From NCBI GenBank assembly GCA_022564995.1, contig JADFKK010000067.1, positions 1-30,022 of the forward strand: 30,022 bases of DNA. Direction: 5' to 3'. The notes beneath the pieces were generated by a model. The model made no database searches. It saw only the letters and a program-made list of their open reading frames with translations, and was not told the origin of the DNA. Position 1 is the stretch's first letter. Every line of letters starts with the position of its first letter. Shown here one piece after another: positions 7,991 to 30,022 of this stretch. Position numbers and translations under genes: made by a program. The stretch comes from Planctomycetota bacterium (lineage in GTDB: Bacteria > Planctomycetota > Planctomycetia > Pirellulales > JADFKK01).

Positions 7991-8035
7991 CGCGAGAGTG
8001 GCGGGGACCGTCGCAGAAATTAGTTACGCGGTTTT

Positions 8036-8150
8036 TCCATTCAAATCCGAAATCCGAAATCCGAAACAAATTCAAAGCACGAATGTCACAAACCTTCCGA
8101 ATGTCCGACGTTTTTGACATTTGAGATTTGGATTTTTTGATTTGTTTCGC
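8036..8150. repeat. AT-rich imperfect inverted repeat built from tandem heptamers in the flotillin to giant-ATPase intergenic region.
   Basis: (AAATCCG)x3 followed by AAAC lies at 8044-8067, with inverted degenerate copies (TTTGAGA, TTTGGAT, TTTTTGA, TTTGTTTCG) at 8110-8148. Three AATGTC/GACATT motifs sit in the centre, and an A8 tract lies at 8163-8170. The local GC is far below the genome background. Confidence 0.7.
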
Positions 8151-8290
8151 CGTGTTGTATTGAAAAAAAAGGCGTACTTCGGATTTGCGATCTCGTTAAA
8201 CTGCCCAAATTGTTCATGCGCGACCTCTAGGTGGTCAGCAGTGACCCGTTACGAGTCATTCGGCGCCCGCCCTCAATCCAAGAACACACG

Positions 8291-14024: not shown

Positions 14025-15911
14025 CTATGCCAAGCTCAACATGAATTCAACCCGTTCCTTGTCGATTACCTCGGTTCGATTGAGCAGTCGAATCGGAAAC
14101 GGCTTCTTCGGCTCGATAGTTTTCCATTGATCCGCAAGGTGCTTCAGCGCACTCGCCTCGATCAGAGCTACGTCCCAGTTCGTTTTTGCTTTGTATCGAT
14201 GCGCGAGTTTGATGGATTGCGGTGTGAAGGACGGCCCGATGACCAAGAAGGCGAGCGGCTGATTGCCTTTCTCCCTTTCTTTGCGCAAGTAGGAGTCAAA
14301 TTGATCGTCAAGGTGGTCCTGGAGATTCACTTGAGCTTCAACCGACTTGTTGTCCCACAGAATCACTTGATTGTTGTCGAGAGGGATTCTGCCGTCGGCC
14401 TTAGTCACTTTCTGTCGTTTGTCGATCTTGACGTTCAACATCACCTCGAACAGAAAGTCTGTTGCTTCCTCGAACTGGTGTTCGATGTCGAGATCCTTCA
14501 CGATGAGCTTTTTCGCCTTCAGGTCAGAATACGATCTGCTTGCGAGAAGTTCGTAGTTATTGTACCACTCTTCCCGCTTGTCCTGCGTCGCGCGTTCTTC
14601 AAAGGTCAGATCGTCGTAGAATTCGATAAGTCGGTTTTGGAAATCTGACTTGTTCCCGGAACTCTTGAGACCGACTAGACGACACATGTCAGACAACTTT
14701 GATCGATCCAAGTCGTCCAGAATGTTACTTGGCTTAATGTCGCTCGTGACGATACGCTCGATGAGGTCAGCCTTGTTTCCGTAGCGATCCATATTTTTCG
14801 CCTGAAGAAAGGTTCGTAGGTCAGGCAATCGAACGGCGTCATGCTCCAGGATTCTGCGATAATTGGTCCGCTGCAACTCCAAGCCGTTGCTCTGCTCGCG
14901 GAGAACCATAACGACCTCGAACGGAATCACATCGATGTTTCGGTTGTTCTCGTCCCGATAACTCCAGAGAAGCGATTCGCGCTGAAGCTCCTTTCGTGCA
15001 TCGTGTACTTCATCTCGCGAGTGTAGCGCGCACTTCGCCTTTGGGAACCTGTGAAGATGAGCACCAATGAGCCAGTGTTCTTCGCGCGAGATGTTTAAGT
15101 GCCCCCTTAGAACTCGCAGGAGTGCAGCCTCATCATAAGAAACATCGTCCTGATTGCGCCAAGCCGCATCCAGAACAAGGCGATAGGTATCGTAATGGTG
15201 CCACCGCATGGCGTCATGTTTCTTCGGATCGAAGAAGTCGAGCTTTTTTGCTCGTTTAACGAGAGCCTTCTCATACTCAAGCACTTTTTCCTCCAGGCGG
15301 TTCTCATCAAGGCTGTGAGTCTCTTCCTGAAGGAGTATTGCGAACAGGATGATCTCTTTCAGATTGCGGCGGTCAACGTCGGGATCGATTTTTTCGAGGC
15401 TTTCGATGATCCTTCCTTTGGCGACCAGCTTCTTGGCGTCCTTGAGAATGCGATTTGTCAAGTCGCCGTCGTTCATGCCTTTCGTCGATTCAAGGAATTG
15501 CCCGAGTATCCGTAGCTTCACCCTCTTGAGCATGTGAGGCGCGATGTCTGCGACCCGTTTACACAGCGCTCGACGGCCGAGCAGTCGCTGTTCTTTGGCG
15601 TCACGTTTTGGCTCACGGCGCTTCTTTCGTTTACGCGCCGTTGGTTGAGGCGGCGGCACTAGTCCGGTGTCCTTGGTCGCGTCAGCTTGATTGCTGTCGA
15701 CCGTTTCGCTTGTGCGTAGCACGTCGTCGTCGGACGTTTCCTCGACGAGTAAACCTGGCTCATCGTCATCGCTAGCCTCTCCAGCAACCACAATACTCTG
15801 CGGCTCCGTTGTCGCGTCGGATGACGACTCTACGTCGTGGTGGATGTCGTTTGCCGACCGCGATGCGTCGGACTCAACTTGTGGACTTGGTGTTGGAATA
15901 TCGTTCGACAC
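14025..15911 (-). CDS. Island protein of 628 aa. It has an acidic disordered N-terminus and a basic KRKKRR patch, two tandem SAP DNA-binding motifs, and a C-terminal domain that looks like a PD-(D/E)xK restriction-endonuclease-like nuclease.
   Basis: The gene is about 47-50% GC against roughly 65% in the flanks. SAP motif 1 is LPDLRTFLQAKNMDRYGNKADLIERIV and SAP motif 2 is LDRSKLSDMCRLVGLKSSGNKSDFQNRLIEFY; both fit L..L.V.EL...L..RGL...G.K..LI.RL. The C-terminal domain has E/D-rich FEEATDFLFEVM, then ADGRIPLD, then VILWDNKS (a D-x-K motif), then Q/E-rich LAFLVIGPSF. The start codon is probably GTG, so the true N-terminus is uncertain. Confidence 0.75.
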   Translation of the reverse strand: MSNDIPTPSPQVESDASRSANDIHHDVESSSDATTEPQSIVVAGEASDDDEPGLLVEETSDDDVLRTSETVDSNQADATKDTGLVPPPQPTARKRKKRREPKRDAKEQRLLGRRALCKRVADIAPHMLKRVKLRILGQFLESTKGMNDGDLTNRILKDAKKLVAKGRIIESLEKIDPDVDRRNLKEIILFAILLQEETHSLDENRLEEKVLEYEKALVKRAKKLDFFDPKKHDAMRWHHYDTYRLVLDAAWRNQDDVSYDEAALLRVLRGHLNISREEHWLIGAHLHRFPKAKCALHSRDEVHDARKELQRESLLWSYRDENNRNIDVIPFEVVMVLREQSNGLELQRTNYRRILEHDAVRLPDLRTFLQAKNMDRYGNKADLIERIVTSDIKPSNILDDLDRSKLSDMCRLVGLKSSGNKSDFQNRLIEFYDDLTFEERATQDKREEWYNNYELLASRSYSDLKAKKLIVKDLDIEHQFEEATDFLFEVMLNVKIDKRQKVTKADGRIPLDNNQVILWDNKSVEAQVNLQDHLDDQFDSYLRKEREKGNQPLAFLVIGPSFTPQSIKLAHRYKAKTNWDVALIEASALKHLADQWKTIEPKKPFPIRLLNRTEVIDKERVEFMLSLA

Positions 15912-16694: not shown

Positions 16695-17597
<903 letters not shown>

Positions 17598-17617
17598 AAC
17601 AAGCGAGGAGTTCATTC

Positions 17618-18355
17618 ATGAGATTTTTCTTGCTCGGTAATCCGCCGATGCGGTCGTTATTGGCCGGATTCGTTCTGCTGTTGGCAACGCGGGGCGCCGG
17701 CGCGTTTGAGCCAACTTCGCAGTATGTGGTCAAGGAGATCGCGGGTTGGAAGGTGTATGTTCACCGCGATCTGCTGCCGGGCGGGAAGCAGCGGGAGACG
17801 GGGGCGCCGGCCTTGAAGAAGCTGGAGCACGGCTTGGCGATGGCGCGGCAGATGGTGGCCGATGGCCCGCTTAAGAAGCTACAAAAGGTGAAGATCTGGC
17901 TGGAGGTCGACTCGACCCGTGGCAAGCACGGCCGCACATCGGCTTATCAGTATCATCCCGGGCTGGATTGGCTGAAGAAGATGGACTTTAATCCCCAGAA
18001 GCTCAAGTGCGTCGAATTCGGCAACGCCGCGAGCCTGGCCAAGCGGTCCGATTTCAAAACGGTCTATGTGACGATGCACGAGTTGGCCCACGCGCTGCAT
18101 CATCAGGTGTACACGTTTGAAGATCCCGACGTGATCGCCGCCCACAAGCGGGCTCGCGAAGAGGGCAAGTATCCGCCGCGGGATTGGGTCGTGCGGGCCA
18201 ACCACAAAGAGTTTTTCGCCGGGCTGTCGACGCGGTATTTTGAATCGGAAGAAGTCCGCAAGCAGCTCGCCGAGCGCGATCCGGTCTTCGCCAAGAAGCT
18301 GGAAGAGTTCTGGGGCAAGCCGAAGGCGCTGATGGACGCGCCGCTGAAGAAGTGA
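17618..18355 (+). CDS. Secreted protein with an HExxH motif (MHELAHALHH), possibly a zinc metallopeptidase-like enzyme. The ATG at 17618 is preferred over the TTG at 17594.
   Basis: GAGGAG lies 7 nt upstream of ATG 17618. The signal peptide is MRFFLLGNPPMRSLLAGFVLLLATRGAGA. The only recognisable catalytic-looking feature is HELAHALHH. Confidence 0.7.
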   Translation: MRFFLLGNPPMRSLLAGFVLLLATRGAGAFEPTSQYVVKEIAGWKVYVHRDLLPGGKQRETGAPALKKLEHGLAMARQMVADGPLKKLQKVKIWLEVDSTRGKHGRTSAYQYHPGLDWLKKMDFNPQKLKCVEFGNAASLAKRSDFKTVYVTMHELAHALHHQVYTFEDPDVIAAHKRAREEGKYPPRDWVVRANHKEFFAGLSTRYFESEEVRKQLAERDPVFAKKLEEFWGKPKALMDAPLKK

Positions 18356-18356
18356 C

Positions 18357-18380
18357 GTAGGTTATGCTTTAACATAACAT
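18357..18380. repeat. Solo copy of a 24-bp REP-like palindromic unit, GTAGGTTATGCTTTAACATAAC, lying between convergent genes.
   Basis: cgtaggttatgctttaacataac is nearly identical to the two inverted copies at 28674-28750. It is AT-rich against a GC-rich background. Confidence 0.7.
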
Positions 18381-18414
18381 TGGCCGTGATTCACTGGCCC
18401 TCTCAAGCCGACAT

Positions 18415-21400
18415 CTACTCATCGAGTGACGCGCGCAGCAGCGCTTCGGCAAGGTCGAAATCAAAGCTTGTGTAATACGTCAAACGGCGGCGGTCGAGGT
18501 TCAGTTTCGCTTTGACGCCGGGATCGACGGCCTTGGCAATTTTTGTATTGATGTCTTTCAGATCGTCGCGGACCGACTTGATACCTTTCTTGTAAAGGTC
18601 GAAGGCCTGTTGTTCCTCTTTTCCGCGCGCGACGATTGCATCGTCGAGCGGCTTGAGGTCGTCTGGCGTCAGGGGCGATTTCGCGGCGCCTAAGGCGTAC
18701 TCGCGCAACGCGCCCGACCACTCGAAGATGTGCCGGGCGTAGGCCGCCGCCGGCGTGTCGGGCTTGGCCTTTGGCAGGGCCTTGACGAGTTTTTCCAGAT
18801 ACTTCACCCCTTCGTTGAGCTTGCCCAACGAGAAATTTTGCCAAGCCAACGCGTGGTAGGCCAATAGCGAATCGGGATGATCGAAGAGCACGTCCTCGAA
18901 TTCCCGCTTCGATAGTGGCGTCTTGCCGTACTTGAGCAACACCAGGCCATAAGCGAGCCTTGGTTCCGGCTCGCTACGGGCCAAATCGTCGGCGTCGTTA
19001 AAAGCGTTGAGATATACATTGCGGTTGGGATGCTTGCGGACTGCCAGCAGCGTGAGGATCGCCTCTTTCGCCTCGGGGCTGAGCCGCTGGAGCGTGGCGT
19101 CGGGCACGAATCGCACGGGCGTTTGTGGGCGGCGCCCTCCGGCGGTTTTCGCCGTTAGGTCTTTCAACACCGCAGCGAAAAGTTCATCTGTATTCAGGCG
19201 ATGATTGCGGTCTTTATCGACGCCCGGCCCACACATGAGCGCTTCGGCCGCCGCCTGGGCAAACAGCCCGACGCTGCCGTCCTTTTTCACGACCGCCCGC
19301 TGGCCCCGCGCACAACTGGCCACGACGTTGACCGACGTGGAGACGGGGCGCCCCGGTGAGGTGCGGAGCGATTCAGCCAACTCGGCCGACGAGGGCTGCC
19401 TGCGGAGATCCTTTCCACGTCCTTCGTGACAAGTGTCGAGCAGAAGGATTTTCTCCTTGGCCGCCGAGGCCTCCATCTGGCCGACCAACCATCGCAGCGA
19501 TAGCCCCGTGGCCGCCATGCGGTCCAAGTCGAATTCCTTGGTGGCCAGATAGGCCGTCCCCGAAGCATCACGATAGCCGTGCCCGACGAAATAAACGATC
19601 AATTGATCCTCAGGCTTGACCAGCTTGAGCATTCGAGAGACATCCTGTTCGAGCCGCGTTCGTGTGGCGTTTGGCTTGTAGTGGAGTTGGTTCTCGTCGA
19701 CGCGATAATGTTCCACCAACACGTCGCGCACCAGGCCGGCGTCGGTGGTTGCGCGGGGCAGCGGCGAAATGGCATCGTTATCGTACTCTCCCTGGCCGAT
19801 GATAATCGCCCAGGTGCTACGATCCGCCTGACGCGCGACGCTAAGGGCCATCGCCTGCGGCCGATCCAGCTCGGGCGAGTCGTGGGCGACCGTCACGCGA
19901 TCGCCCTGGCGAAGAAAATAAAGATCGACCGGGGTGTTTTTTTCGCCGACGGTGATCCGGCAATCGCTGCGCACTGAAAACTTCACCGGATTGTCTTGCC
20001 CGCTGAGTGAGAGAAATACGCTACGATCTTCGTAGGCCACGCGGGTGACGTTGCCGGTGTGATGAAACACGCGATCGGCGTCGATCTTCCTGATCTGCCA
20101 ATCGTGGTTGATACTGACGTGGTCTCCGGCCCGCAGATCGCCCAGCGCGAGAATCTTGCCGTTCACCTGGGAGAGTTTATTGAGCGTGATGGGGCAATCG
20201 TCGGCCAGCGGCAGCGTGCGGACCGGCGCGCTGTTTCCCGGGCCGAGGCGCAGCTTCAACTCATGTTTTTCCGTGTCGATCGCGATGACGTAACCTTCTG
20301 CCGCGGTCAGCCGCGTGGCCGACAGCGACGTAGCCATGCGACCATCGCCGCGGGCAACGTGCCCAAGAGACACCTCATCGCCCTGCTTGAGGTCCTCTAA
20401 CCCGACGGCGCGGCCGCCACCGCCGCTGCCCGTAATTGTATTGGCCGAGCCGTTCAATTTGATTTCAAAATTTTGGGGCAGATAGATTTCCAACGGCGGA
20501 TCGTCCGCGCCGGCACCGGTCAACTCGATCTTGATTTTTCGGGCCTCGGTGTCGATGGCAGCGATCCGCCCGCTGGCGGCGACGGCCTCGGGACGCTTGG
20601 CGGTGATTTGCTTGGCGCTGCCCGCATCCAATATCCGTATGACGATGGCGTCTCCCACCTTGAGGTCTTGCAGTTGGACCTTACGATCGTTGAGGAAGAT
20701 GTCGTCCGTCTGAGGATTGATGTCGACACGCACCGAATCGATACTGCCGGGCACGCTCAGCCAGATACTATTGAGCCGCACGTCTTTGTGCTCCAGCGTC
20801 CCCTCGCTCGGTAGCTTGTTCTTGACGTCGGTCTGAATCGTCTCCGTCTGCGGGAAGACCTTGTCGGCGACGAACATGCCGACACAGAGCAGCAGGCTGA
20901 CCGACACGGCTGCGATGGTCAACACCCGCTTTCGCTTTGCCTTGCGCGCTTCTTCTTCGGCGCGGGCCGCTTCAACTTCGGCCGGCGACTGATCGGCAAG
21001 CTGCGCCAGCGTGCGCAAGTCGACGACCGCCTCTTCGGCCGTGCGATACCGCTTGGCCGGGTCTTTCTGCGTGAGCTTCTCGATGACGGTGACCAGGTCC
21101 GCAGGCACGCCTTCCAACACGCGGTTGATTTCCGGCAGGCGGCGATCGGCCGCGGCGTGCCACATCATCCAGGCAACCTGTTGATCGCGGCCGATGATGT
21201 TCAGCCCGGGAAACAACGACTCGAACTGTTCGCCACACAGTAGATCGAAGGCCGCGAAGCCGAGCGAGTAAAGATCGCTGTGCGGGCCGACGGGTCCGAA
21301 TTGGTCGGAGACGACCTCGGGGGCCATGTATTTGGTGGTGCCCTTGAGCAGGCTGCCATCGTCGCCGGCAACGCGGCGGGCGATGCCAAAATCGCCCAGC

Positions 21401-21834
21401 TTGACGCGATCCGATTTGTCGAGCATCAGATTGCCGGGCTTGACGTCGCCGTGAACGATGCCGTTTTGATGCAGAAAGTGCAGCGCGTGCAGCGTGTAGA
21501 TCAGCGTGAGTCGCAAAAAGTCGACGTCGATCGGCTGGCCGTGCAATTGCTGCTGCAAGCCGCCCTTCATCAACTCCAGAACGAGCCAGCCTCGCTCGCG
21601 GACGATGTCGTAGATCGTCATGATGTTGGGATGTTCGAGCGAGGCCAACAATTGGGCCTCCTGCCAATAGCGTTCCAATTGTGCCGGGTCGTCGAGATAT
21701 TGCTGATGGATCTGCTTGATCGCCACCTCGCGATTGAGCTCCAGATCGCGGGCGCGATAGACCGTGGCGAAATCGCCCTTGGCGATTTGGTCGATAATCT
21801 GATATCGCTCGTGGGGCTGCATGGCTGGGATCAC
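18415..21834 (-). CDS. Hanks-type Ser/Thr protein kinase of 1,139 aa. The domain order is N-terminal kinase, a single transmembrane helix, beta-rich repeats, a caspase-like (peptidase C14) His/Cys domain, and a C-terminal alpha-helical TPR-like region.
   Basis: Kinase motifs are GDFATVYRA, VAIKQI, HRDVKPGN-type HGDVKPGNLML, DFGIARR and TKYMAPE. The transmembrane helix is VLTIAAVSVSLLLCVGMFVA at about nt 20860-20920. The caspase-like block at about nt 19400-19870 has WAIIIGQGEYD...LIVYFVGHGY...KILLLDTCHEGRG, a His-Gly then D-x-C-H dyad pattern. The C-terminus has TPR-like helices. Confidence 0.9.
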   Translation of the reverse strand: MIPAMQPHERYQIIDQIAKGDFATVYRARDLELNREVAIKQIHQQYLDDPAQLERYWQEAQLLASLEHPNIMTIYDIVRERGWLVLELMKGGLQQQLHGQPIDVDFLRLTLIYTLHALHFLHQNGIVHGDVKPGNLMLDKSDRVKLGDFGIARRVAGDDGSLLKGTTKYMAPEVVSDQFGPVGPHSDLYSLGFAAFDLLCGEQFESLFPGLNIIGRDQQVAWMMWHAAADRRLPEINRVLEGVPADLVTVIEKLTQKDPAKRYRTAEEAVVDLRTLAQLADQSPAEVEAARAEEEARKAKRKRVLTIAAVSVSLLLCVGMFVADKVFPQTETIQTDVKNKLPSEGTLEHKDVRLNSIWLSVPGSIDSVRVDINPQTDDIFLNDRKVQLQDLKVGDAIVIRILDAGSAKQITAKRPEAVAASGRIAAIDTEARKIKIELTGAGADDPPLEIYLPQNFEIKLNGSANTITGSGGGGRAVGLEDLKQGDEVSLGHVARGDGRMATSLSATRLTAAEGYVIAIDTEKHELKLRLGPGNSAPVRTLPLADDCPITLNKLSQVNGKILALGDLRAGDHVSINHDWQIRKIDADRVFHHTGNVTRVAYEDRSVFLSLSGQDNPVKFSVRSDCRITVGEKNTPVDLYFLRQGDRVTVAHDSPELDRPQAMALSVARQADRSTWAIIIGQGEYDNDAISPLPRATTDAGLVRDVLVEHYRVDENQLHYKPNATRTRLEQDVSRMLKLVKPEDQLIVYFVGHGYRDASGTAYLATKEFDLDRMAATGLSLRWLVGQMEASAAKEKILLLDTCHEGRGKDLRRQPSSAELAESLRTSPGRPVSTSVNVVASCARGQRAVVKKDGSVGLFAQAAAEALMCGPGVDKDRNHRLNTDELFAAVLKDLTAKTAGGRRPQTPVRFVPDATLQRLSPEAKEAILTLLAVRKHPNRNVYLNAFNDADDLARSEPEPRLAYGLVLLKYGKTPLSKREFEDVLFDHPDSLLAYHALAWQNFSLGKLNEGVKYLEKLVKALPKAKPDTPAAAYARHIFEWSGALREYALGAAKSPLTPDDLKPLDDAIVARGKEEQQAFDLYKKGIKSVRDDLKDINTKIAKAVDPGVKAKLNLDRRRLTYYTSFDFDLAEALLRASLDE

Positions 21835-22715
21835 TCGCGCCGCAAAATGTTGATTAACGCTTCCAGATTCTCGTCGCTGGGCGCCGACCCGGTCACTTGG
21901 CCGGTCACGCCAGCGTACTTATTCTTACCCTCGGCATGTAACATGTCTAGCACCTGCTTGTAGAGCATTTTTTCGGATTTTTCATCGCCACTGGAATGCT
22001 CCTGTAGCGCCTCGCGAATCAGCAGTTGATAAGGCTGCAACTGCGAGGTCTCGGACTGCTCGCCAATGTAGTAGGCCTCGAGCGATTCCCGCGATTCTTG
22101 CTTGCTCCTGCTTTCGCTGCGCGATGTAGACATATCGACCAACAGCAGCAGCACGCTAAAGCCGATGCTCACCACCAGTGCGACAATCAACAGCGGCGAG
22201 CTGCCCGAGGAGGAGACTTCCTCGGTTTTTTCCTTGGCATCGGCCTCTCGCAAGACCAACTCCGGCAACTGGCCATCGGCGCCGAGTTGAATTTTCGTCT
22301 CCGTCCGCTCGGCCGTGATGAACTTCGCTTGCTTGGCCTTGCGGCGCTGGCGTTTTGGCTGGCGTTTTGGCTGGACGGGCGGCCCAGTGGACGGATCAGC
22401 GGTCGGCACGTCTGGCGACGGAGTGGGCAACACCGTGGGCGGCTCGGCCGGATTGACGGCTGCGGCAGCCACTTTGGCGGAATCCCGCCCCTTGACGCTC
22501 TTCAATCCCGCCGGCACGACGCCTGCCCGACGCTTCGGCGTGTCCGGCGGCGGAGGCGGCGACGGAGGTGGCGACGTCGCTGGCGTAGAACTTTCGCCGC
22601 CAAGCGACACGGGAAACTGGCTCTTGCATTGCGGACAGGAGGCCAGTTGGCCGACCAATTCATCCGGCGCGGTCAGCTCCGAGTTGCAACCAGGACATTT
22701 TACTTGGACGGGCAT
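21831..22715 (-). CDS. Membrane protein with an N-terminal zinc-ribbon (CPGC...CPQC), a Pro-rich linker, a basic patch, one transmembrane helix and a C-terminal domain of about 100 aa. Its function is unknown and it sits inside the tad operon.
   Basis: MPVQVKCPGCNSELTAPDELVGQLASCPQCKSQF; PPPSPPPPPDTP; KRQPKRQRRKAKQAKF followed by the TM LLIVALVVSIGFSVLLLLV. Its start is immediately downstream of the tadC stop and its end overlaps the kinase start by 4 nt. Confidence 0.7.
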   Translation of the reverse strand: MPVQVKCPGCNSELTAPDELVGQLASCPQCKSQFPVSLGGESSTPATSPPPSPPPPPDTPKRRAGVVPAGLKSVKGRDSAKVAAAAVNPAEPPTVLPTPSPDVPTADPSTGPPVQPKRQPKRQRRKAKQAKFITAERTETKIQLGADGQLPELVLREADAKEKTEEVSSSGSSPLLIVALVVSIGFSVLLLLVDMSTSRSESRSKQESRESLEAYYIGEQSETSQLQPYQLLIREALQEHSSGDEKSEKMLYKQVLDMLHAEGKNKYAGVTGQVTGSAPSDENLEALINILRRE

Positions 22716-22721
22716 AAACGG

Positions 22722-23675
22722 TTATAGCTCAAAACCGGAGGTGAGGAAATTCAAGACAAACGGGCCGAGCATGATTAACACGGTGGCCGCCATCACCAAC
22801 ACGCCCGGCAGCAGCATGTTGACGGCCGATTCGCCGGCGATTGTTTCGGCCCGCTGGCTGCGCTTGACGCGGAGCACGTCGGCCGTAGCGCGCAAAATGC
22901 CGGTCAGCGGCGTGCCCAACTCTTCGCTCTGAATGATCGTACCGATGATCGAATTGATCTCGTCGTCCGATAGCCGGCGACGCATCGACTCGAACGCCTC
23001 GCTACGGGCCTTGCCCATGTTCATGTCGGTCAGCACGCGGCCGAACTCCGTGGAGATGGGGTGTCCCTCGAACTCGATCACCGTCTGCTTGAGCGCTTGC
23101 AGGAAGCTCGATCCGGCCTCCATCAGCAGCGTGAGCAGATCGAGCACAAACGGCATTCGGCGTTTGATCTCGACCAACCGGCGCTCGGCCAGTCCAGCCA
23201 ACCGGCGGCGCAACAGCCAGACGGTTAGGCCGGCCAGCATCAGAGCCGACACCGCGCCGACCGATCCCATCCAATCGATGCAGAAGTACAGATAGACCGG
23301 CAGCAACAACAGCGAGATCACCTGGCAGCGAGCCAGATACTCTTCGGCCAGCCAATAACGCGATAGCCCGGCCGCTTGGATCTGTCGGCCGATCTCCGGC
23401 AGGCGGGTTGGAACGGCGGCGCGATTGAGCTTGGCGAAAAACTGCACGACCGGCTGCAACAAGCGATAGATGACGTCGCCGCGGCGCAGCGCGTTGATGC
23501 GGCTCACGTCGTAACGCCATTCGTCCTCTTGAGCAACATCGTCCGAGGCCAGCGCCGACAGCACCCACCACAGCAGCGCAGCGACAGCGCCGCCGGTCAG
23601 TCCACAGGCAGCCAGCGCCAAGGGGTCAATCACCGCGAGCGGTGCGATCGAGATGTTCAGGCTAGATGTCAGCAC
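22722..23675 (-). CDS. tadC: TadC-like Flp pilus assembly inner-membrane platform protein (T2SS-F/GspF family).
   Basis: It has the GspF-type topology with a cytoplasmic helical domain (FVLDLLTLLMEAGSSFLQALKQ...) between transmembrane segments. It overlaps the tadB stop by 14 nt and follows tadB in the canonical order. Confidence 0.8.
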   Translation of the reverse strand: MLTSSLNISIAPLAVIDPLALAACGLTGGAVAALLWWVLSALASDDVAQEDEWRYDVSRINALRRGDVIYRLLQPVVQFFAKLNRAAVPTRLPEIGRQIQAAGLSRYWLAEEYLARCQVISLLLLPVYLYFCIDWMGSVGAVSALMLAGLTVWLLRRRLAGLAERRLVEIKRRMPFVLDLLTLLMEAGSSFLQALKQTVIEFEGHPISTEFGRVLTDMNMGKARSEAFESMRRRLSDDEINSIIGTIIQSEELGTPLTGILRATADVLRVKRSQRAETIAGESAVNMLLPGVLVMAATVLIMLGPFVLNFLTSGFEL

Positions 23676-24582
23676 GCATGATCCTCAATGCCCACAGGTA
23701 AGCCACGACGTTCAACACCACGGCCGCACAAAGAATTAACTGGCCGGGCAGCGTGTTGAACAGCAGCGTGACGTTTTCCGGAGTGACGAACGCATACAAA
23801 ATCAAAATGACCGGAGGCACCATGGCCATGTAAACGGCCGACTTGCGAGCCTGGGCCGTTTCGCTGCGAACCTTTCGCTCGAGCCGCTGCATCTCGACCA
23901 CGCTCTTGGCGATTCGCTCGACCGCCTCATTCAGTCGGCCGCCGCTCTCTCGGCTGGCCAACAGGGCCGCGGCGAAGAGCAGAAAATTTTCGCTCTTGAG
24001 CCGCTCCTTGGCCTCGGTCAGCGTGCGCTCCAGCGGCTTGCCCATCTCGTACTCGCCGACGATCTGCTGGAATTCCTGATTGATCGGACGGGGACAGTCT
24101 TTGGCCAACATTTCCAGCGCCTGGGCCAGCGACAAGCCGGCCCGGATCGCGCTGCTGAACGTAACCATCGCATCGGCCAGTTGTTCCTCGATTCTATCGC
24201 GCCGCCGGACCGAAAGCCTGCGCACGATGTACCAAGGCCCGGCGGTCATCGCTACGGCGGCCAGCACTCCCAACGGAAAGCTGTCGAGCGCGAGCCACAG
24301 GCAAACGAACGTGGCGCCGATCAGGCCGGCCCACAGATTGATCCAGCGGCGCAAGTTTCGCGACCCGATTCGCAGGCCGCGCAGCCGTTCGGTCAAGTCG
24401 TTCTCGACCAAATCGCAAGCCTGCCCGTAGCCCGGCCGGATTGCGAAAGCGGCACCCGCCACGCAAACGCCGGTGATCAGGTTGACGGCTAATAGCCCCA
24501 GGTCATTCACGGTGGGCTCTCGATGTTTCGTTGGGTGGTTGAAGTGGATTGGTTCGTAAAGGTCGACAGGTAGGGTGAGCAA
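23662..24582 (-). CDS. tadB: TadB-like Flp pilus assembly inner-membrane platform protein (T2SS-F family).
   Basis: T2SSF-like cytoplasmic domain (MVTFSSAIRAGLSLAQALEMLAKD...) with N- and C-terminal transmembrane helices. It is immediately downstream of cpaF. Confidence 0.8.
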   Translation of the reverse strand: MLTLPVDLYEPIHFNHPTKHREPTVNDLGLLAVNLITGVCVAGAAFAIRPGYGQACDLVENDLTERLRGLRIGSRNLRRWINLWAGLIGATFVCLWLALDSFPLGVLAAVAMTAGPWYIVRRLSVRRRDRIEEQLADAMVTFSSAIRAGLSLAQALEMLAKDCPRPINQEFQQIVGEYEMGKPLERTLTEAKERLKSENFLLFAAALLASRESGGRLNEAVERIAKSVVEMQRLERKVRSETAQARKSAVYMAMVPPVILILYAFVTPENVTLLFNTLPGQLILCAAVVLNVVAYLWALRIMRADI

Positions 24583-24597
24583 CTCGTGGGTCGAAAG

Positions 24598-24684
24598 ATT
24601 TGTTATTTGTTATTTGTCATTTGTCATTGGTCATTGAAAGCTGAAAATGACGAATGACGGATGACAAATAATGAATGATAAATT
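24598..24684. repeat. AT-rich imperfect inverted repeat made of tandem heptamers (TTATTTG/TCATTTG/TCATTGG on the left, TGACGAA/TGACGGA/TGACAAA on the right) between cpaF and tadB.
   Basis: tttgtcatttgtcattggtcatt, then gaaagctgaa, then aatgacgaatgacggatgacaaa: stems of about 23 bp with 3 mismatches and a 10 nt loop. The local GC is about 30% inside a 65% GC operon. Confidence 0.8.
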
Positions 24685-24712
24685 CGGCGCGTCGTGGCAG
24701 CGATCACTCCCC

Positions 24713-26629
24713 TCACGATTTCCCGTTGCTTTGTTCTTCTCCCTCCCAGGCTCCATATAAAAACTCAAGCTCCAGCAGTTGTTTCTCCACCAGCGAATCG
24801 ACAAACGTCGGCAGGTAGCCGGTCGGTCGCAGGCTCTTTCCGTCGCGGCGATTGAAAATGTCGGTGAGGATCGGTTCGATGGTGTCGGGATGAACCCCGG
24901 AAACTTCGGTGATTTGTGCCACCACGCGCTGCCCGCTGGGAAGCCGGTCGATGTGGACGATCAGGTCGATGGCCGAAGCGATTTGCCGGTGAATCGAACT
25001 CATCGGCAACTCGGCGCCCATCAGCATCAACAGCTCCAGCCGGGCGATCACCTCTTCGCTGCTGTTGGCATGAACCGTGGTCATCGAACCGTCGTGGCCC
25101 GTATTCATCGCCTGGATCATGTCGAGCGCCTCGCCGCCGCGACATTCGCCGACCACAATCCGATCGGGCCGCATGCGCAGGGCGTTCTTCACTAAATCGC
25201 GTATCGTATACGCACCGGCCCCTTCGACATTGGCCGGCTTGCTCTCCAGGCTGACCACGTGCTCCTGATGCAGCCGCAATTCGGTCGTGTCTTCGATCGA
25301 AACGATCCGCTCTTTATGCGGAATAAAGCTACTCAGCACGTTGAGCATCGTTGTTTTGCCCGAGCCGGTGCCGCCGCTGATCAGAATGCTTTTGCGATCG
25401 ACCACGCAGGCTCGCACAAACATGGCGGCGGCCTTGCCGATGGTTCCCAGTTCGATCAGGTCGTCCATCGTCATCCGCTGAATTGGAAACTTGCGAATCG
25501 TCAAACAGGGCCCGAACACGGCCAAAGGTGGAATGATCGCATTCACCCGCGAGCCGTCGGGCAAGCGCGCGTCGACCAGCGGCTGGCTTTTGTCGATCCG
25601 CCGGCCGACCTGGGCAACGATTCGCTCGATGATCGATTCGGTAACTTTTTCCGAGATAAACCGCCGGCCGGAGTTCTCAATCACCCCGTCGCGCTCCACA
25701 TAGATTTGATCGCTACGGACCACCATGATTTCGCTGATGGTCGGGGCGCGGAGCAAATCTTGCAGCGGCCCGAAGCCGAAGACGATGTCCTTGAGATCTT
25801 TCTTGAGCATCCGCAGCACCAGATACTTGCGCAGCTCGCCGTGCAGATGCGGCCGAACCAGCGGAAATACGTCGATGAAGCGATCCTCGACACGCTGGAT
25901 TTTCTGGCTGACGTCGGGCAGCTTTTCGAGATCTAGTTTTTCCCGCAGGAATTGCAGCAGGCTGTGTAGCTCGGTCTCGCGCTCGGGCACCAACGTGGCC
26001 GGGATGTCGAATTCATTGGAGGTGAGCGCTGCCAGATCGAACACCTCGTCGGCGCCGGTCTCCATGATGAGTTGATTGATCAGATGGTCGCGCAGCCCCA
26101 GGCCGGTAATCTCCTCCAGCAGCGAGTCGTTGATATCGCCGAACAGGTTCATCTCGCGGCAAACGTCTTCGATGTTGTTTTCCAGCGACAAAATGCTCTC
26201 GGGCGTGGCTCCGCTGGCGGAATCGGTCTCGTACAGATCGAGGCGTTCGAGCAGCTTTTTGTGAATCCGCAATTCCAGATCGGCCACCGTGGTGCGCAGA
26301 TGGGCTTCGAGCTCCTCGCGGCTGATGCCGGCCACCTCTTCGGTCTCGAAGCTGATCGTGTAGGGCCAGATGCGGACCTTGACGCTGGAAGTGAACTTGG
26401 CCCGCTCTCCGCCGAGCACTTCCGTATCGCCGACCAGGCAGCTATTCAGGCCGACGTTTTCCAGTTCCATTTCGCCGTTATGAACGCGCACCACGGCGTG
26501 CCGGCGCGAGACCAGCGGGCTGCGCAGCACCACGCTGTTGGTCTCTTCGCGGCCGATGTAAAACTCATTGGCCTCGATTTCGACCACACTGCGGCGGCTT
26601 TCGTTGACTTTGTTAAACCAGATTTTCAT
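24713..26629 (-). CDS. cpaF: CpaF/TadA secretion ATPase (VirB11/GspE superfamily) with an N-terminal FHA-like domain.
   Basis: ATPase core: KSILISGGTGSGKTTMLNVL (Walker A), SIEDTTEL, RIVVGECRGGEALDMIQAMNTGHDGSMTTVHANS. The N-terminal 100 aa contain FYIGREETNSVVLRSPLVSRRHAVVRVHNGEMELENVGLNSCLVGDTEV, which fits the FHA pattern GR...D..L....VSR.HA... Confidence 0.88.
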   Translation of the reverse strand: MKIWFNKVNESRRSVVEIEANEFYIGREETNSVVLRSPLVSRRHAVVRVHNGEMELENVGLNSCLVGDTEVLGGERAKFTSSVKVRIWPYTISFETEEVAGISREELEAHLRTTVADLELRIHKKLLERLDLYETDSASGATPESILSLENNIEDVCREMNLFGDINDSLLEEITGLGLRDHLINQLIMETGADEVFDLAALTSNEFDIPATLVPERETELHSLLQFLREKLDLEKLPDVSQKIQRVEDRFIDVFPLVRPHLHGELRKYLVLRMLKKDLKDIVFGFGPLQDLLRAPTISEIMVVRSDQIYVERDGVIENSGRRFISEKVTESIIERIVAQVGRRIDKSQPLVDARLPDGSRVNAIIPPLAVFGPCLTIRKFPIQRMTMDDLIELGTIGKAAAMFVRACVVDRKSILISGGTGSGKTTMLNVLSSFIPHKERIVSIEDTTELRLHQEHVVSLESKPANVEGAGAYTIRDLVKNALRMRPDRIVVGECRGGEALDMIQAMNTGHDGSMTTVHANSSEEVIARLELLMLMGAELPMSSIHRQIASAIDLIVHIDRLPSGQRVVAQITEVSGVHPDTIEPILTDIFNRRDGKSLRPTGYLPTFVDSLVEKQLLELEFLYGAWEGEEQSNGKS

Positions 26630-26652
26630 GCGTGCAGTATCAATTCAGATCG

Positions 26653-26679
26653 GTGCCTGGGGCAGGTTTCCTAACCTGC
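26653..26679 (-). promoter_or_regulatory. Conserved 22-nt hairpin motif GCAGGTT-AGGA-AACCTGC-CCCA, 28 nt upstream of the cpaF start codon on the coding strand.
   Basis: The reverse complement of 26658-26679 is gcaggttaggaaacctgcccca. This is 21/22 identical to 16650-16671 upstream of the PfkB-family gene. Confidence 0.5.
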
Positions 26680-26705
26680 CACCGACAAGGCGCAGGGTGC
26701 ATCGC

Positions 26706-26954
26706 GAGGCTTGAGGCTTGAGGCTTGAGGCTTGAGGCTTGAGGCTTGAGGGGTCGAGGGGTTGAAGGGTTGAGGGGTTGAGGGGTGAGAAAACTAGCAA
26801 GAACACAACAGGACGAACACGGATCAGAAAACAGCATGATTCCGTCAATTTTCCTCCTAAACCGCTCACTCCTTACTCCTCACTTCTCAAGCCTCAACTC
26901 CTCAACTCCTCACTCCTCACTCCTCAAGCCTCAAGCCTCAAGCCTCAAGCCTCA
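26706..26954. repeat. Large imperfect inverted repeat of about 250 bp (a potential cruciform or long hairpin). Its arms are tandem heptamer/octamer arrays, (GGCTTGA)x5-6 then (GGGGTTGA)x4, with inverted (TCAACTCC/TCACTCC)x4 then (TCAAGCC)x5. A spacer of about 78 bp separates the arms.
   Basis: The left arm is 26706-26787 and the right arm is 26865-26954, its reverse complement with a G-rich/AG-rich substitution. The repeat lies between the cpaB stop (26952) and the cpaF start (26629). Translating it gives the spurious LKPQASSLKPQASSL ORFs in the track. Confidence 0.85.
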
Positions 26955-27650
26955 TTTCTTCTCCGGCACATACGGCAACACGCCCATTCCGCGCCCGCTG
27001 TTTCTGATGATCGCGTCGTTGAGCTTTTTCGCCTCGCCATCGAATCTCTTGCCTTTTAGTTTTATGAAGACGGTGATCTGCCGCTCCGCGCGCGAGCGGC
27101 TACTGCCCCGGGAGGCCTCGCGGCTGCCCAAGCGGCTGCCCATCGCCGCGACGGTAAACGGTCCAATCAGGTCATCCTGGGTTCCTTGCGACTCCTTCAC
27201 CTCTGGACGAGTCGGCGCGATGAAATAAACTTGGTCGCCCGGATCGATCAGCGCCGTCACAACGCGGTTGGAGTCGATCGGAACAACCATCCAGGACTTG
27301 TTCTCCCCCTCAAACGTAATCTCGGTCGGCGGCGTGCGATAGTCCTTGCGAAATATCAAATCGCCTTCCGAAAGCGGGCGGGTTGCCTTGATCGCGCCGA
27401 CGACCGTATTGATTTCGTCATAAAGGTAGACGAATTTTTTCAACTGGTCGGCCTGTTTTTTCGGCACCGGCACCCGGACCAACTGATCCTTCTTAATCAG
27501 ATCGCCGACTTTAATCGTCACGCCGTCGCGAACCCCGATAAACGCCACGCTACCGCTGCCCTCGGTCTTCTGGCTGAGATAAACCCAATTGACCGCCACG
27601 GCCAGCAGGCCCAGCCCGGCCGCGATGATAAGACCTATCGAACCCTTCAT
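26952..27650 (-). CDS. cpaB: CpaB/RcpC-like Flp pilus assembly protein.
   Basis: N-terminal signal-anchor MKGSIGLIIAAGLGLLAVAVNWVYL, then a SAF-like beta domain (VAFIGVRDGVTIKVGDLIKKDQLVRVPVP) and an RcpC-like C-terminal region. Its position upstream of cpaF fits. Confidence 0.6.
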   Translation of the reverse strand: MKGSIGLIIAAGLGLLAVAVNWVYLSQKTEGSGSVAFIGVRDGVTIKVGDLIKKDQLVRVPVPKKQADQLKKFVYLYDEINTVVGAIKATRPLSEGDLIFRKDYRTPPTEITFEGENKSWMVVPIDSNRVVTALIDPGDQVYFIAPTRPEVKESQGTQDDLIGPFTVAAMGSRLGSREASRGSSRSRAERQITVFIKLKGKRFDGEAKKLNDAIIRNSGRGMGVLPYVPEKK

Positions 27651-27657
27651 ACGTTGA

Positions 27658-28665
27658 TTACTCCCGGGAACCGCTCGGCGCCGCCCTCAGCACCAACGTC
27701 CCACCGATGTTATGGTCTCGATCCCGGGCCAACTGGATTTCGATTCGGCCTGCCTCGGGGTGCTCGAACCGCGCATGCCACGAGCCGTGCAGATTGCGCC
27801 AGGCGACGTCGGGCGAATAGCCGTGCCCGACCAACCACCGGTCGTAAAACTGCATCCACGCTTGTGGCGTTCCGTTTGAATTCTGTTCCGCTCGAGGCGC
27901 TCGCTGTCGAAAACCGACCACGCCCTCGCCCTCGCCAAACCGCAACGTCAAGGTTCGTTCTGCCCCCGGCGGAAGCGGAACCTCAAGTGAGCCTGCGGCC
28001 ACGGCGAGACGTCCTTCTTGTAGGTGGTAAGTAAACAGCGTCCACTCGTGCTCGGACGCGGCCAGCGCCAACCCCCAACATACCACGCGGCGGTCGAATG
28101 GGGCAACTTCACCGCCCTGGTCAGAAGCGGCCAAAACGGCCTTTTTTCGGCTCTCGGCGGCCGTTTTTCGGGTCGCGGCGACCATTGGCAGCGGCCCGTC
28201 GAGCTGGAAAATTTCCCAAATCGCCGCTTCGCCCGAGATGGGGCCATGTTCGACCGGGGATAGTGCATCGAGGGTGGCCAACATTTTCAGTTCCGAGGCG
28301 AGCGCAGGCGCGGCGGGAGGTGCTGAACGCCCCACGATAACGCGGCAGCGACGACGCAGTTGGGCCATAGCCGCTTTGCGATCGCCGCTGAATCGCTGAC
28401 GGCCGAGCGATCCGTCCATTTCGGCCGTCTGAAGCGAATGCGGCACGCCGGCGTCGGACGTATCGCCTCGGCCCAACATGTCCAGCGCGATCTGTCGCGG
28501 GTTGGCCTCCTCGGCCGGCTCGCCCCACCAGCCGATCATCTCCCGGCCGACCATCCAGCCGCCAAAAAGAATGATCAGCGTGGCCAGGACGTTGCAGACC
28601 CACCCGGTAACGCGGCGTCGGCGCGAAAGCGGCTCTTTCGATTTGCGGGGCGGAGATTCGCTCAT
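27658..28665 (-). CDS. Tad-locus membrane-anchored protein of unknown function. It has a basic N-terminus and one transmembrane helix (VTGWVCNVLATLIILFGGWMVG). The start is probably the ATG at 28665 rather than 28692.
   Basis: The ORF is in the operon between the tadE-like gene and cpaB. The upstream Met at 28692 lies inside the REP-like palindrome, and the same spurious MLKHNLR N-terminus appears at 18375. Confidence 0.55.
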   Translation of the reverse strand: MSESPPRKSKEPLSRRRRVTGWVCNVLATLIILFGGWMVGREMIGWWGEPAEEANPRQIALDMLGRGDTSDAGVPHSLQTAEMDGSLGRQRFSGDRKAAMAQLRRRCRVIVGRSAPPAAPALASELKMLATLDALSPVEHGPISGEAAIWEIFQLDGPLPMVAATRKTAAESRKKAVLAASDQGGEVAPFDRRVVCWGLALAASEHEWTLFTYHLQEGRLAVAAGSLEVPLPPGAERTLTLRFGEGEGVVGFRQRAPRAEQNSNGTPQAWMQFYDRWLVGHGYSPDVAWRNLHGSWHARFEHPEAGRIEIQLARDRDHNIGGTLVLRAAPSGSRE

Positions 28666-28673
28666 CGGTTTTC

Positions 28674-28750
28674 GTAGGTTATGCTTCAGCATAACATCGC
28701 AGGCACGCGACGCCTTCGCTTGGATTTCGTTATGCTAAAGCATAACCTAC
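28674..28750. repeat. REP/MITE-like element: two inverted copies of the 24-bp palindromic unit GTAGGTTATGCT(TC/TT)AGCATAAC flanking about 28 bp.
   Basis: cgtaggttatgcttcagcataac at 28674, and gttatgctaaagcataacctacat at 28728, which is the reverse-complement orientation. A third solo copy is at 18357. Confidence 0.75.
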
Positions 28751-29553
28751 ATCCCTAATGCGGCGGCTTCTCGTTGTTGAAAGATTTGCTCTAATCGTCG
28801 AGGCAGTTGGCTGATGAGCCCGCGACGGCCCGGCGTGTCGATCAGACGATTGACTTCCAGCCTCTCGACCACCTCCTCGTCCAATTCACAGCGGCCGGCG
28901 TTGATCCTGGGATGAAAGCCGTTAAGCACTTCCAGCGCCTCGCGCTCGGGCATCGACAGCAAGTCACGCACCGATTTTACGAAGAGACTGCCGTCGGTCT
29001 TCGGCAATTCATACAACACCTTTGTGCGTCGATAGATGTTACGCGGCAGGCCAACGCGGTCGCCGGCGTCGTTCTCGACGTTCATCTGCGACGTCTGCCA
29101 CTGGCCGTCGAGCATCGGGTGGCGAATCTCGCCGCTATTGAACTCACCTAGCTTCGACAGCAGGGGATATCCGCGCGTGATTTCCGCCGAGCCGCGATAG
29201 GCACCCGCGCGATCGGGATTGAGCAGCGGACGCACGATGAAGCCGTTGGGCAAGGGGCCGCGAACCACCGGAAGATCGATCGCCTGATCGTCGAGCCGGG
29301 CGATCTCGACGTCGCCCGCCACGTCCATTTTAGCATTCGCCGGCCAAACCTTCGTCTCGGGCCGCGGCTCGTCGCGCCCCGTCCGCGGCCAACGCACCCG
29401 CCAGGCCGCATCGCGGGCGACGATCTCGCCGCGTATCCGCCAGGCGGTCATCGTGCCCAGATTGACCATCAGCGCCGTCACGAACAAAAACACCGGCAGC
29501 CAGAGGACAAACTCCAGGGGAGCCAAGCCGCGACGTCGTCGACTGTGATTCAT
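28747..29553 (-). CDS. TadE/TadG-like pseudopilin-type Flp pilus assembly protein.
   Basis: The N-terminus RRRGLAPLEFVLWLPVFLFVTALMVNLGTM matches the TadE-like N-terminal motif (G.A.VEFAL..P.LL.L..G). At 268 aa it falls between TadE and TadG in size. Confidence 0.55.
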   Translation of the reverse strand: MNHSRRRRGLAPLEFVLWLPVFLFVTALMVNLGTMTAWRIRGEIVARDAAWRVRWPRTGRDEPRPETKVWPANAKMDVAGDVEIARLDDQAIDLPVVRGPLPNGFIVRPLLNPDRAGAYRGSAEITRGYPLLSKLGEFNSGEIRHPMLDGQWQTSQMNVENDAGDRVGLPRNIYRRTKVLYELPKTDGSLFVKSVRDLLSMPEREALEVLNGFHPRINAGRCELDEEVVERLEVNRLIDTPGRRGLISQLPRRLEQIFQQREAAALGM

Positions 29554-29571
29554 GATGTTGACCTACGTGGT

Positions 29572-29667
29572 TAGTCGTTGATCGCTCTGCGATCGAAACG
29601 TATTGTTCGCGGAGCGAACAACGACTATTGAACAATTCGTTTCGATCGCGGAGCGAACAACGACTAT
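29572..29667. repeat. Composite element of about 96 bp: 29-bp terminal inverted repeats (CGTTTCGATCGCrGAGCGAwCAACGACTA) plus an internal 21-bp direct copy. The core GTTCGC-GGA-GCGAAC is itself palindromic.
   Basis: The reverse complement of 29572-29600 matches 29638-29666 at 27/29. The sequence cgcggagcgaacaacgactat at 29609-29629 repeats part of 29647-29667. The element lies between the tadE-like start and the upstream small ORF stop. Confidence 0.7.
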
Positions 29668-30014
29668 CAGTGATTGCTAATCCACCGCAAATCTTCTTCC
29701 GTCAGCCTGCGCAGATCCGGCACATTGGCCTCCACCCCGATCGACTCGGGCGACGTGCTGAGAATCTCCGCGAGCGCCGGCGTGGTGGCTGGCACCATCT
29801 GCATGGTCCAGTTCTGATTGATTAAATCCCAACGCGTCGGATGCCGAGCGGAACTCTGCCGGGTGACGTACCATTCGACCTCGTTCTCCGAGCCGTCGGG
29901 CGGAGGCGGCTGCTGCGCTCCGGGCACGGGCAGAGGGACACTCTCGCCGCCGGGCACGGCCCCCGAATTCTCGCCGGAATTTTGTTGCTGCTGGTCGAGC
30001 CGCCGCGAGGCCAT
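29667..30014 (-). CDS. Small hypothetical protein of 115 aa with a Gln/Pro-rich N-terminus and no transmembrane helix.
   Basis: Complete ORF with its ATG at 30012-30014. It has no recognisable domain. Its codon usage is GC-rich like its neighbours. It may be the first gene of the tad operon or unrelated. Confidence 0.35.
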   Translation of the reverse strand: MASRRLDQQQQNSGENSGAVPGGESVPLPVPGAQQPPPPDGSENEVEWYVTRQSSARHPTRWDLINQNWTMQMVPATTPALAEILSTSPESIGVEANVPDLRRLTEEDLRWISNH

Positions 30015-30022
30015 AATCAGCC

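Follow-up and report, generated by a model that had tools for sequence, protein, structure and literature searches.

How does a Tad pilus motor receive its instructions, and can the gene block that encodes it also encode the signal? In Tad pili, CpaF is the one motor that drives both extension and retraction. The question is raised by a stretch of 30,022 nucleotides (hereafter the window, i.e. the whole stretch of DNA analysed) from the metagenome-assembled genome of a Planctomycetota bacterium of the order Pirellulales (assembly GCA_022564995.1, contig JADFKK010000067.1, positions 1 to 30,022), in which a CpaF ATPase bearing an FHA domain and a Hanks-type Ser/Thr kinase are encoded in one run of pilus genes. 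A first reading of these letters without database searches (the sequence-only reading) had proposed that a phosphothreonine (pThr) mark made by the kinase gates the pilus. The present analysis gives an answer in two parts: functional coupling of the kinase and the Tad machine is well supported, while the route by which the FHA domain of the motor would read a pThr mark is one towards which we lean, if only slightly.

On the minus strand, from position 30022 down to 18415, the window holds a single densely packed Tad/Flp pilus gene block; it covers the 3' two-thirds of a Tad (Flp) pilus operon of the Pirellulales type. From its upstream end, it contains the following genes.

29667..30022, minus strand: C-terminal fragment of a TadG-like pseudopilin/assembly protein, truncated by the window end.
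28747..29553, minus strand: TadE-like protein of 268 amino acids (aa), PF07811 at E 0.0011, transmembrane helix at residues 9-37.
27658..28692, minus strand: conserved membrane protein of 344 aa with one transmembrane helix at about residues 28-50.
26952..27650, minus strand: CpaB/RcpC-like protein of 232 aa, named mainly from its position, with an N-terminal transmembrane helix.
24713..26629, minus strand: FHA-fused Tad motor ATPase CpaF/TadA of 638 aa, T2SSE at E 4.5e-60 plus FHA (PF00498).
23662..24582, minus strand: TadB platform protein, T2SSF (PF00482) at E 2.5e-21, syntenic in 73 loci.
22722..23675, minus strand: TadC platform protein, T2SSF (PF00482) at E 5e-14, in a 14-nt overlap with tadB.
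21831..22715, minus strand: zinc-ribbon single-pass membrane protein (znr) of 294 aa, with weak zinc-ribbon Pfam matches.
18415..21834, minus strand: receptor-type Hanks Ser/Thr kinase of 1139 aa, with which the conserved block ends.

The spacing from tadB through tadC and znr to the kinase is -14, +6 and -4 nt. As the sequence-only reading had noticed, the start of the 1,139-aa kinase overlaps the preceding gene: its GTG shares the znr stop TGA as GTGA. An alternative ATG lies four codons downstream, and the spacing is at most 8 nt with either start.

The link between kinase and pilus genes was followed in related genomes. A genome scan anchored on CpaF provided 80 species-level loci at 71-81% CpaF identity, and slot counts were taken from the 49 of them that extend 9 kb or more downstream. 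In 41 of these 49, a gene coding for the kinase and its caspase-fold domain lies in the same order and on the same strand; the isolate Lignipirellula cremea shows the same gene order, with the kinase in its slot. The gap between the znr stop and the kinase ranges from -4 to about 300 nt in most loci, and the kinase-caspase-TPR fusion is one open reading frame (ORF) in most complete cases. Beyond the kinase, the next genes (the 253-aa ORF dn253, and pfkB) are never syntenic among the related loci. Kinase-domain matches number 48 in the slot vs. 2 in 1.01 Mb of the other flank (about 0.2 per 100 kb). Seen from the other side, a metagenome scan anchored on the kinase found znr upstream in 53 of 60 cases, tadC in 39 of 47, tadB in 33 of 41 and cpaF in 25 of 32. 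The conservation of the kinase with the tad genes, on which the sequence-only reading depended, is thus borne out in both directions.

As for the motor, its identity is clear: the protein is matched by the TadA-family model TIGR03819 of NCBIfam (330.7 bits), its best solved relative in the PDB is Caulobacter CpaF (E 1.9e-93), and a Walker A motif, GGTGSGKT, stands at residue 419. Its homologs place the window in Pirellulales. Two parts of it matter for signalling.

26345..26629, minus strand: FHA domain, CpaF residues 1-95, from PF00498 and an AlphaFold2 (AF2) beta-sandwich.
25976..26032, minus strand: short linker motif A-L-T-x-N-E-F-D-x-P-A-T-L-V-P-E-R-E, CpaF residues 200-218, from ortholog conservation.

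The FHA-like domain that had first been read by eye holds up against the profile: PF00498 matches residues 24-77 at E 1.1e-8, with 35.8 bits against a cutoff of 20.7. In the AF2 model, residues 1-95 form a beta-sandwich with a predicted local distance difference test (pLDDT) score of 82-92, followed by helices with low-confidence loops (residues 104-283) and then by the ATPase. The pThr-pocket residues G26, R27, S41, H44 and N62 are unchanged in 105 of 105 CpaF orthologs while FHA residues outside the pocket vary within the window's clade, the signature of a ligand-binding pocket under selection. The stretch VSRRHA is, moreover, identical to that of the pThr-binding FHA domains of GarA and OdhI. 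From these residues, the domain is predicted to be phosphothreonine-competent.

Concerning the linker motif, E206, D208, P210, L213, E216, R217 and E218 are found in all 105 orthologs, T212 in 94 and T203 in 88. Its first part, up to residue 210, falls in a low-confidence linker loop (residues 191-210, pLDDT below 50). A 1880-aa repeat protein, P0217, gave 14 matches to the motif; this protein is repetitive and unrelated, and its similarity seems to be due to chance.

The kinase is built as a receptor, a feature that the sequence-only reading had overlooked: a single transmembrane helix separates the kinase domain from a predicted periplasmic part of about 800 residues with beta repeats, a caspase fold and a TPR-like end.

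21031..21804, minus strand: cytoplasmic kinase domain, residues 11-268, Pkinase at E 6.9e-45.
20857..20925, minus strand: single transmembrane helix, residues 304-326, with KAKRKR N-terminal of the helix, an N-in charge pattern.
19837..20805, minus strand: periplasmic all-beta region of four repeats, from AF2 strands, with a weak CusF-like match.
19102..19815, minus strand: periplasmic caspase-fold domain, residues 674-911, Peptidase_C14 (PF00656) at E 2.4e-13.
18418..19077, minus strand: helical TPR-like C-terminal domain, from AF2 helices (fragment residues 584-803), with a weak TPR_14 match.

In the kinase domain, K40, E59, H128-G-D130, K132, N135, D148-F-G, T167 and A171-P-E are invariant in 40 of 40 orthologs, and T166 is kept in 38. 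With HGD in its catalytic loop, the kinase is of the non-RD type, and its residues predict that it is catalytically intact. The AlphaFold model of the periplasmic part, for which two protein searches giving at least 5 and 11 matches supplied the AF2 alignment, reaches a pLDDT of 87.7 and shows the three regions listed above. The beta repeats carry a recurrent mark, LxxL[KR]xGDxV, at kinase residues 388, 479, 564 and 638. In Foldseek, the caspase-fold domain resembles MALT1 and caspase-9 (E about 1e-9, TM-score up to 0.68). A His752/Cys802 dyad is present in the window copy; both residues are kept in 16 of the 40 orthologs, and the dyad is lost in L001, L002 and L005, the three loci of highest CpaF identity. 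Its loss in 24 of 40 orthologs makes the domain, as a family, likelier to be a sensor or binding module than a protease, and the family is probably mostly non-catalytic.

As a whole, the canonical FHA pocket, the invariant kinase residues and the conserved linkage make the functional coupling of kinase and Tad machine well supported. More distant relatives extend the picture. A search with CpaF residues 1-280, made without a profile, returned full-length relatives at 22-31% identity, and seven of their loci were looked up. Five of the six informative loci, L163, L164 (two kinases), L165, L166 and L167, have a Hanks kinase within the Tad locus, and that of L165 sits where the window has its own. 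In L169 the Tad locus is without a kinase, and the contig of L168 ends too early to judge. The accessory domains of these kinases differ (PEGA, FGE-sulfatase, TPR), so the association with a kinase was kept, or re-made, with different sensors. The FHA pocket is canonical or near-canonical in the window's clade and in P0257, P0250 and P0193, all with kinases, and is degenerate in two kinase-less cases, P0285 (L169) and Rhizobium etli p42e. The correlation between pocket state and kinase presence is only partial, in a small sample uncorrected for kinship.

Two of the distant loci show another arrangement. L163 (1-4129) and L167 (1-4442) open with a large Hanks kinase carrying FGE-sulfatase, PEGA or TPR domains, directly followed by a second, short T2SSE ATPase of 370-382 aa that has no FHA domain, which suggests a two-ATPase variant of the Tad system.

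How, then, might the kinase act on the pilus? The sequence of events that we favour by a little starts in the periplasm, where the beta repeats, the mostly dead caspase fold and the TPR-like part would sense an envelope or pilus cue. The kinase domain would then phosphorylate a threonine, either on itself or on a component of the machine, with the zinc-ribbon adaptor, TadB/TadC and the conserved linker motif of CpaF as candidate targets. Finally, the FHA domain of CpaF would bind the pThr mark and would in this way control the motor's docking or its activity at the TadB/TadC platform. Here the phospho-target, the sign of regulation and the sensed signal are all points that we infer. No secretin (CpaC/RcpA), TadZ/CpaE or ParA/MinD-like domain was found among the called genes of L161 or the ORFs of the window, and such genes may lie elsewhere in the genome; the distant loci L164 and L168 do carry a secretin. 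The TadZ/CpaE localiser is absent from the locus, and the kinase-FHA route may be its substitute. A broader version, in which a dedicated receptor kinase, sensing pilus or envelope state, and znr write the pThr mark, the FHA domain of the motor reads it, TadZ/CpaE is replaced and the motor is possibly switched between extension and retraction, both in Pirellulales and in several distant FHA-CpaF lineages, is tentative; we hold it to be conceivable without leaning towards it.

Several observations weigh against the pThr-FHA route or against a strict tie between kinase and pilus. A conserved cytoplasmic threonine target was sought in znr, TadB, TadC and the juxtamembrane region of the kinase, and none stands out: the only well-conserved znr threonine, T271 (98%), is C-terminal to the transmembrane helix in a protein of uncertain topology, and the conserved threonines of TadB and TadC are inside or beside T2SSF domains or transmembrane helices. 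T212 of CpaF, the best target candidate, is replaced by Met or Asn in 11 of 105 orthologs; with T203 replaced in 17, the linker motif makes only a weak candidate. No PP2C phosphatase was found among the ORFs of the window or in any locus examined. In the distant proteins P0203 and P0223 (loci L163 and L164), the GR/SxxH residues of the FHA pocket are lost and the kinases are kept, so the link with a kinase does not strictly depend on a pThr-binding CpaF. Furthermore, the kinase is missing from its slot in 8 of the 49 genomes, the znr-kinase pair lies away from tad genes in L097 and L119, and a large hairpin stands between cpaB and cpaF. A promoter and terminator scan of positions 18000-30022 gave counts matching those of shuffled sequences and is uninformative on co-transcription. 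Of the proposal that a kinase-made pThr mark gates the pilus, the coupling of kinase and Tad machine keeps its footing, and it is the passage through the FHA domain that the want of a conserved target, the phosphatase-free locus and the two distant lineages with degenerate pockets leave at the level of a plausible route.

The displaced pairs belong to one sub-lineage, where znr and the kinase (L097, 8790-13372; L119, 6785-11179) stand behind genes for a GDSL-lipase and an Fe-alcohol-dehydrogenase, with no tad genes within 8-10 kb upstream of the pair. Since znr moved along with the kinase, these two genes form the tightest unit of the block, and the pair behaves as a mobile two-gene unit.

Should the kinase regulate the Tad machine without the FHA domain of CpaF, that domain would serve for scaffolding or oligomerisation independently of phosphorylation, as in YscD-type proteins of the type III secretion system or EssC of the type VII secretion system, and the kinase would act on another target, such as the platform, the pilins or a regulator. 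This would accommodate the kinases retained beside the degenerate pockets of P0203 and P0223, the FHA-like N-domain that R. etli p42e keeps with neither GR/SxxH nor a locus kinase, the want of a conserved threonine target and a weak match of CpaF to the Yop-YscD_cpl model. It leaves unaccounted for the five pocket residues fixed in 105 of 105 orthologs amid a varying domain, as well as the kinases present in every locus with a canonical or near-canonical pocket. We regard it as unlikely, but as deserving real weight.

A reading on which the kinase senses envelope stress or the cell cycle in general, is merely inherited beside the tad genes and does nothing specific to Tad would draw on the many Hanks kinases, bearing TPR and further accessory domains, that planctomycetes encode (PMC11032199), on the eight genomes lacking the kinase at this position and on the ability of the znr-kinase pair to sit elsewhere. 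Simple inheritance sits badly, however, with a linkage that persists among loci of 71-81% CpaF identity in spite of the reshuffling of all that lies outside the block, with the low kinase background of the flanks (about 0.2 per 100 kb), with gene spacing that is overlapping or near zero, and with unrelated kinase architectures recurring in distant FHA-CpaF Tad loci. We consider it improbable.

Lastly, that the kinase-caspase protein is a conflict or defence effector guarding the pilus, a common phage receptor, and triggering proteolysis or growth arrest is very improbable: the intact dyad of the window copy and weak matches to the NCBIfam models 'caspase, EACC1-associated type' (94 bits) and MADS6 antiphage kinase (107 bits) speak for it, but these scores are far under the cutoffs of 140 and 460, for which reason it was set aside, and, besides, the prediction places the caspase domain in the periplasm, 24 of 40 orthologs (L001, L002 and L005 included) have lost the dyad and no other defence genes occur in the locus.

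With the pThr-FHA route thus retained as the slightly favoured account, how much of the system is new? Less than the sequence-only reading had implied, since FHA-fused CpaF proteins (PMC12019362, PMC8460266) and an FHA signalling cascade for the Kil system are already described. Class III CpaF proteins have an FHA-IDR-3HB-NTD-CAD architecture, with E3HIW0 of Achromobacter xylosoxidans as an example; they are mostly from Betaproteobacteria, and neither a kinase nor Planctomycetes are named in that work (Nat Commun 2025, PMC12019362). Like them, the CpaF of the window has an FHA domain at its N-terminus, joined through a flexible/helical linker to the CpaF ATPase core. It differs in being universal in its Pirellulales clade and linked to an operon-encoded Hanks kinase.

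The Kil system of Myxococcus xanthus is Tad-like and has a single ATPase, KilF, with an N-terminal FHA domain (eLife 2021, PMC8460266). The Kil authors put forward a signalling cascade based on FHA, drawing a parallel with secretion systems of type VI (T6SS), with no mention of a kinase, and described several extra FHA proteins and a short secretin (PMC8460266). An FHA domain on a single ATPase is common to both, and no TadZ was seen in the locus of the window. The latter, on the other hand, holds a single FHA domain, is without a secretin and includes a zinc-ribbon adaptor together with an embedded kinase; the comparison is one of architecture and does not imply predation.

In the T6SS itself, threonine phosphorylation involves the kinase PpkA, the phosphatase PppA and Fha1/TagH, and in Agrobacterium phosphothreonine-bearing TssL is bound by Fha (PMC3953482). 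In both cases, the gene cluster of an envelope nanomachine encodes an FHA reader as well as a transmembrane Hanks kinase whose sensor is periplasmic, and the proposed logic, by which a pThr mark would recruit a machine component, is shared. In the window, however, the FHA domain is fused to the motor ATPase instead of residing on a separate scaffold, the locus has no PP2C and the machine is of a different family.

The gene order of the block is shared by Rhizobium megaplasmids without a kinase, such as p42e of Rhizobium etli CFN42 (RHE_RS24780-24830; locus L170, 165585-191474): prepilin peptidase, TadE/G, Tad, TadE, a hypothetical protein, CpaB, CpaF, TadB, TadC and a single-pass membrane protein. 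The Rhizobium CpaF is likewise long, with an N-terminal FHA-like domain, and is 37% identical to that of the window over residues 11-614. However, the locus has no Hanks kinase, the N-domain of its CpaF is without the GR/SxxH pocket residues, and the protein after TadC has an FHA domain instead of a zinc ribbon. Pairwise BLAST of the znr, 344-aa and CpaB-like proteins against their Rhizobium positional counterparts gave nothing.

In every lineage looked at, the gene after tadC codes for a single-pass membrane protein of about 250-320 aa. Its cytoplasmic head is a zinc ribbon in Pirellulales and an FHA or FHA-like domain in Rhizobium and the distant loci, as follows.

L164, 12006-12758: FHA or FHA-like post-tadC gene.
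L165, 13725-14528: FHA or FHA-like post-tadC gene.
L167, 13705-14679: FHA or FHA-like post-tadC gene.
Rhizobium, in L170: FHA or FHA-like post-tadC gene.

Neither pili nor caspase domains figure in a survey of the Ser/Thr kinases of planctomycetes (PMC11032199), and within the collection of papers searched in full text none was found to tie a Hanks kinase to a Tad locus. What is new here is thus the conserved kinase-adaptor pair and the periplasmic pseudo-caspase sensor, not the FHA-ATPase fusion.

The remaining genes of the block are known in varying degree. The gene order of the sequence-only reading, from a tadE-like gene through a membrane protein, cpaB, cpaF, tadB, tadC and the zinc-ribbon gene to the kinase, was recovered on the minus strand, with one reservation: the identity of cpaB rests on position and not on a profile match, as the protein reaches only E 0.084 and 13.2 bits with the RcpC model (cutoff 28.8). 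The gene in the same slot does match RcpC (PF16976) in L166, L167 and the Rhizobium locus L170. The TadE-like protein, syntenic in 48 loci, scores 19.5 bits with PF07811, under the cutoff of 22.9; its orthologs and those of TadG in L001 and L161 exceed the cutoffs for PF07811 and PF13400. In L001, the counterpart of the TadG-like fragment, whose ORF spans 29667-30014, forms the C-terminal end of a 530-aa ORF that has a Tad domain (PF13400); in L161, the counterpart is a 506-aa protein, also with PF13400. The 344-aa membrane protein, without a match in Pfam or NCBIfam, is syntenic in 59 loci with a median identity of 28%. As for znr, it has an N-terminal CxxC...CxxC and a transmembrane helix at residues 173-195. 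The Flp pilin and the A24 prepilin peptidase are encoded upstream in L001 and L161, i.e. outside the window end.

Each of the four gaps examined between the tad-operon genes contains a hairpin-forming inverted repeat, which had gone unnoticed in the sequence-only reading.

26706..26953, minus strand: hairpin of about 90 bp in the cpaB-cpaF gap, tandem GGCTTGA-type heptamers facing their reverse complement.
24598..24683, minus strand: hairpin of tandem ATTTGTY heptamers in the cpaF-tadB gap, with 38-nt arms that are 82% complementary.
29572-29666, 28674-28750 and 18361-18378: further repeat sites.

The cpaB-cpaF gap measures 322 nt, and its hairpin has a minimum free energy of -177 kcal/mol (z -12.6). 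The closest relative has 57 nt between the two genes, and the (GGCTTGA)3 21-mer was not found in any of 162 related loci. Three copies of a small palindrome, GTTATGCTnnAGCATAAC, are present: two between the TadE-like and 344-aa genes and one just past the kinase stop. These hairpins could be insertions resembling repetitive extragenic palindromic (REP) sequences or miniature inverted-repeat transposable elements (MITEs), or else elements of mRNA processing or stability.

The rest of the window codes for the following.

9-5078, plus strand: surface protein of 1689 aa with many Big_9 and cadherin-like repeats and LamG-like and C-type lectin domains.
5169-5870, plus strand: YqiJ-N-like membrane protein, the first of a three-gene run (5169-13717).
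5867-7990, plus strand: protein of 707 aa with no family match, in a region of strong positive AT skew.
8231-13717, plus strand: protein of 1828 aa with DUF3686 (E 2.5e-191), DUF7902 and an AAA ATPase domain.
14025-15911, minus strand: protein of 628 aa with SAP (E 2.5e-8) and SAP_new25 (E 1.8e-6) DNA-binding motifs.
17594-18355, plus strand: dn253, the 253-aa ORF, convergent on the kinase gene.

The 1689-aa surface protein is a candidate giant adhesin on the same contig as the pilus operon. The 628-aa protein lies in a stretch of lower G+C (0.50-0.55); SAP-type domains are better known from eukaryotes. The predicted product of dn253 has a signal-like N-terminus and a HELAH motif, with a weak match to the anthrax lethal factor family ATLF (E 8.4e-4, below cutoff).

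For the biology of these pili, the locus supplies a concrete kinase candidate for the cue by which CpaF passes between extension and retraction. Being conserved in growable isolates such as Lignipirellula cremea, it makes phosphorylation control of a pilus directly testable; the zinc-ribbon protein is an obvious partner, and the sites for point mutants are clear. It also offers a functional setting for a caspase-fold domain that belongs to a bacterial receptor kinase, lies in the periplasm and is for the most part catalytically dead. If the tentative broader version were true, this would be the first case of a type IV filament motor that is gated by a kinase and has the reader as part of its ATPase.

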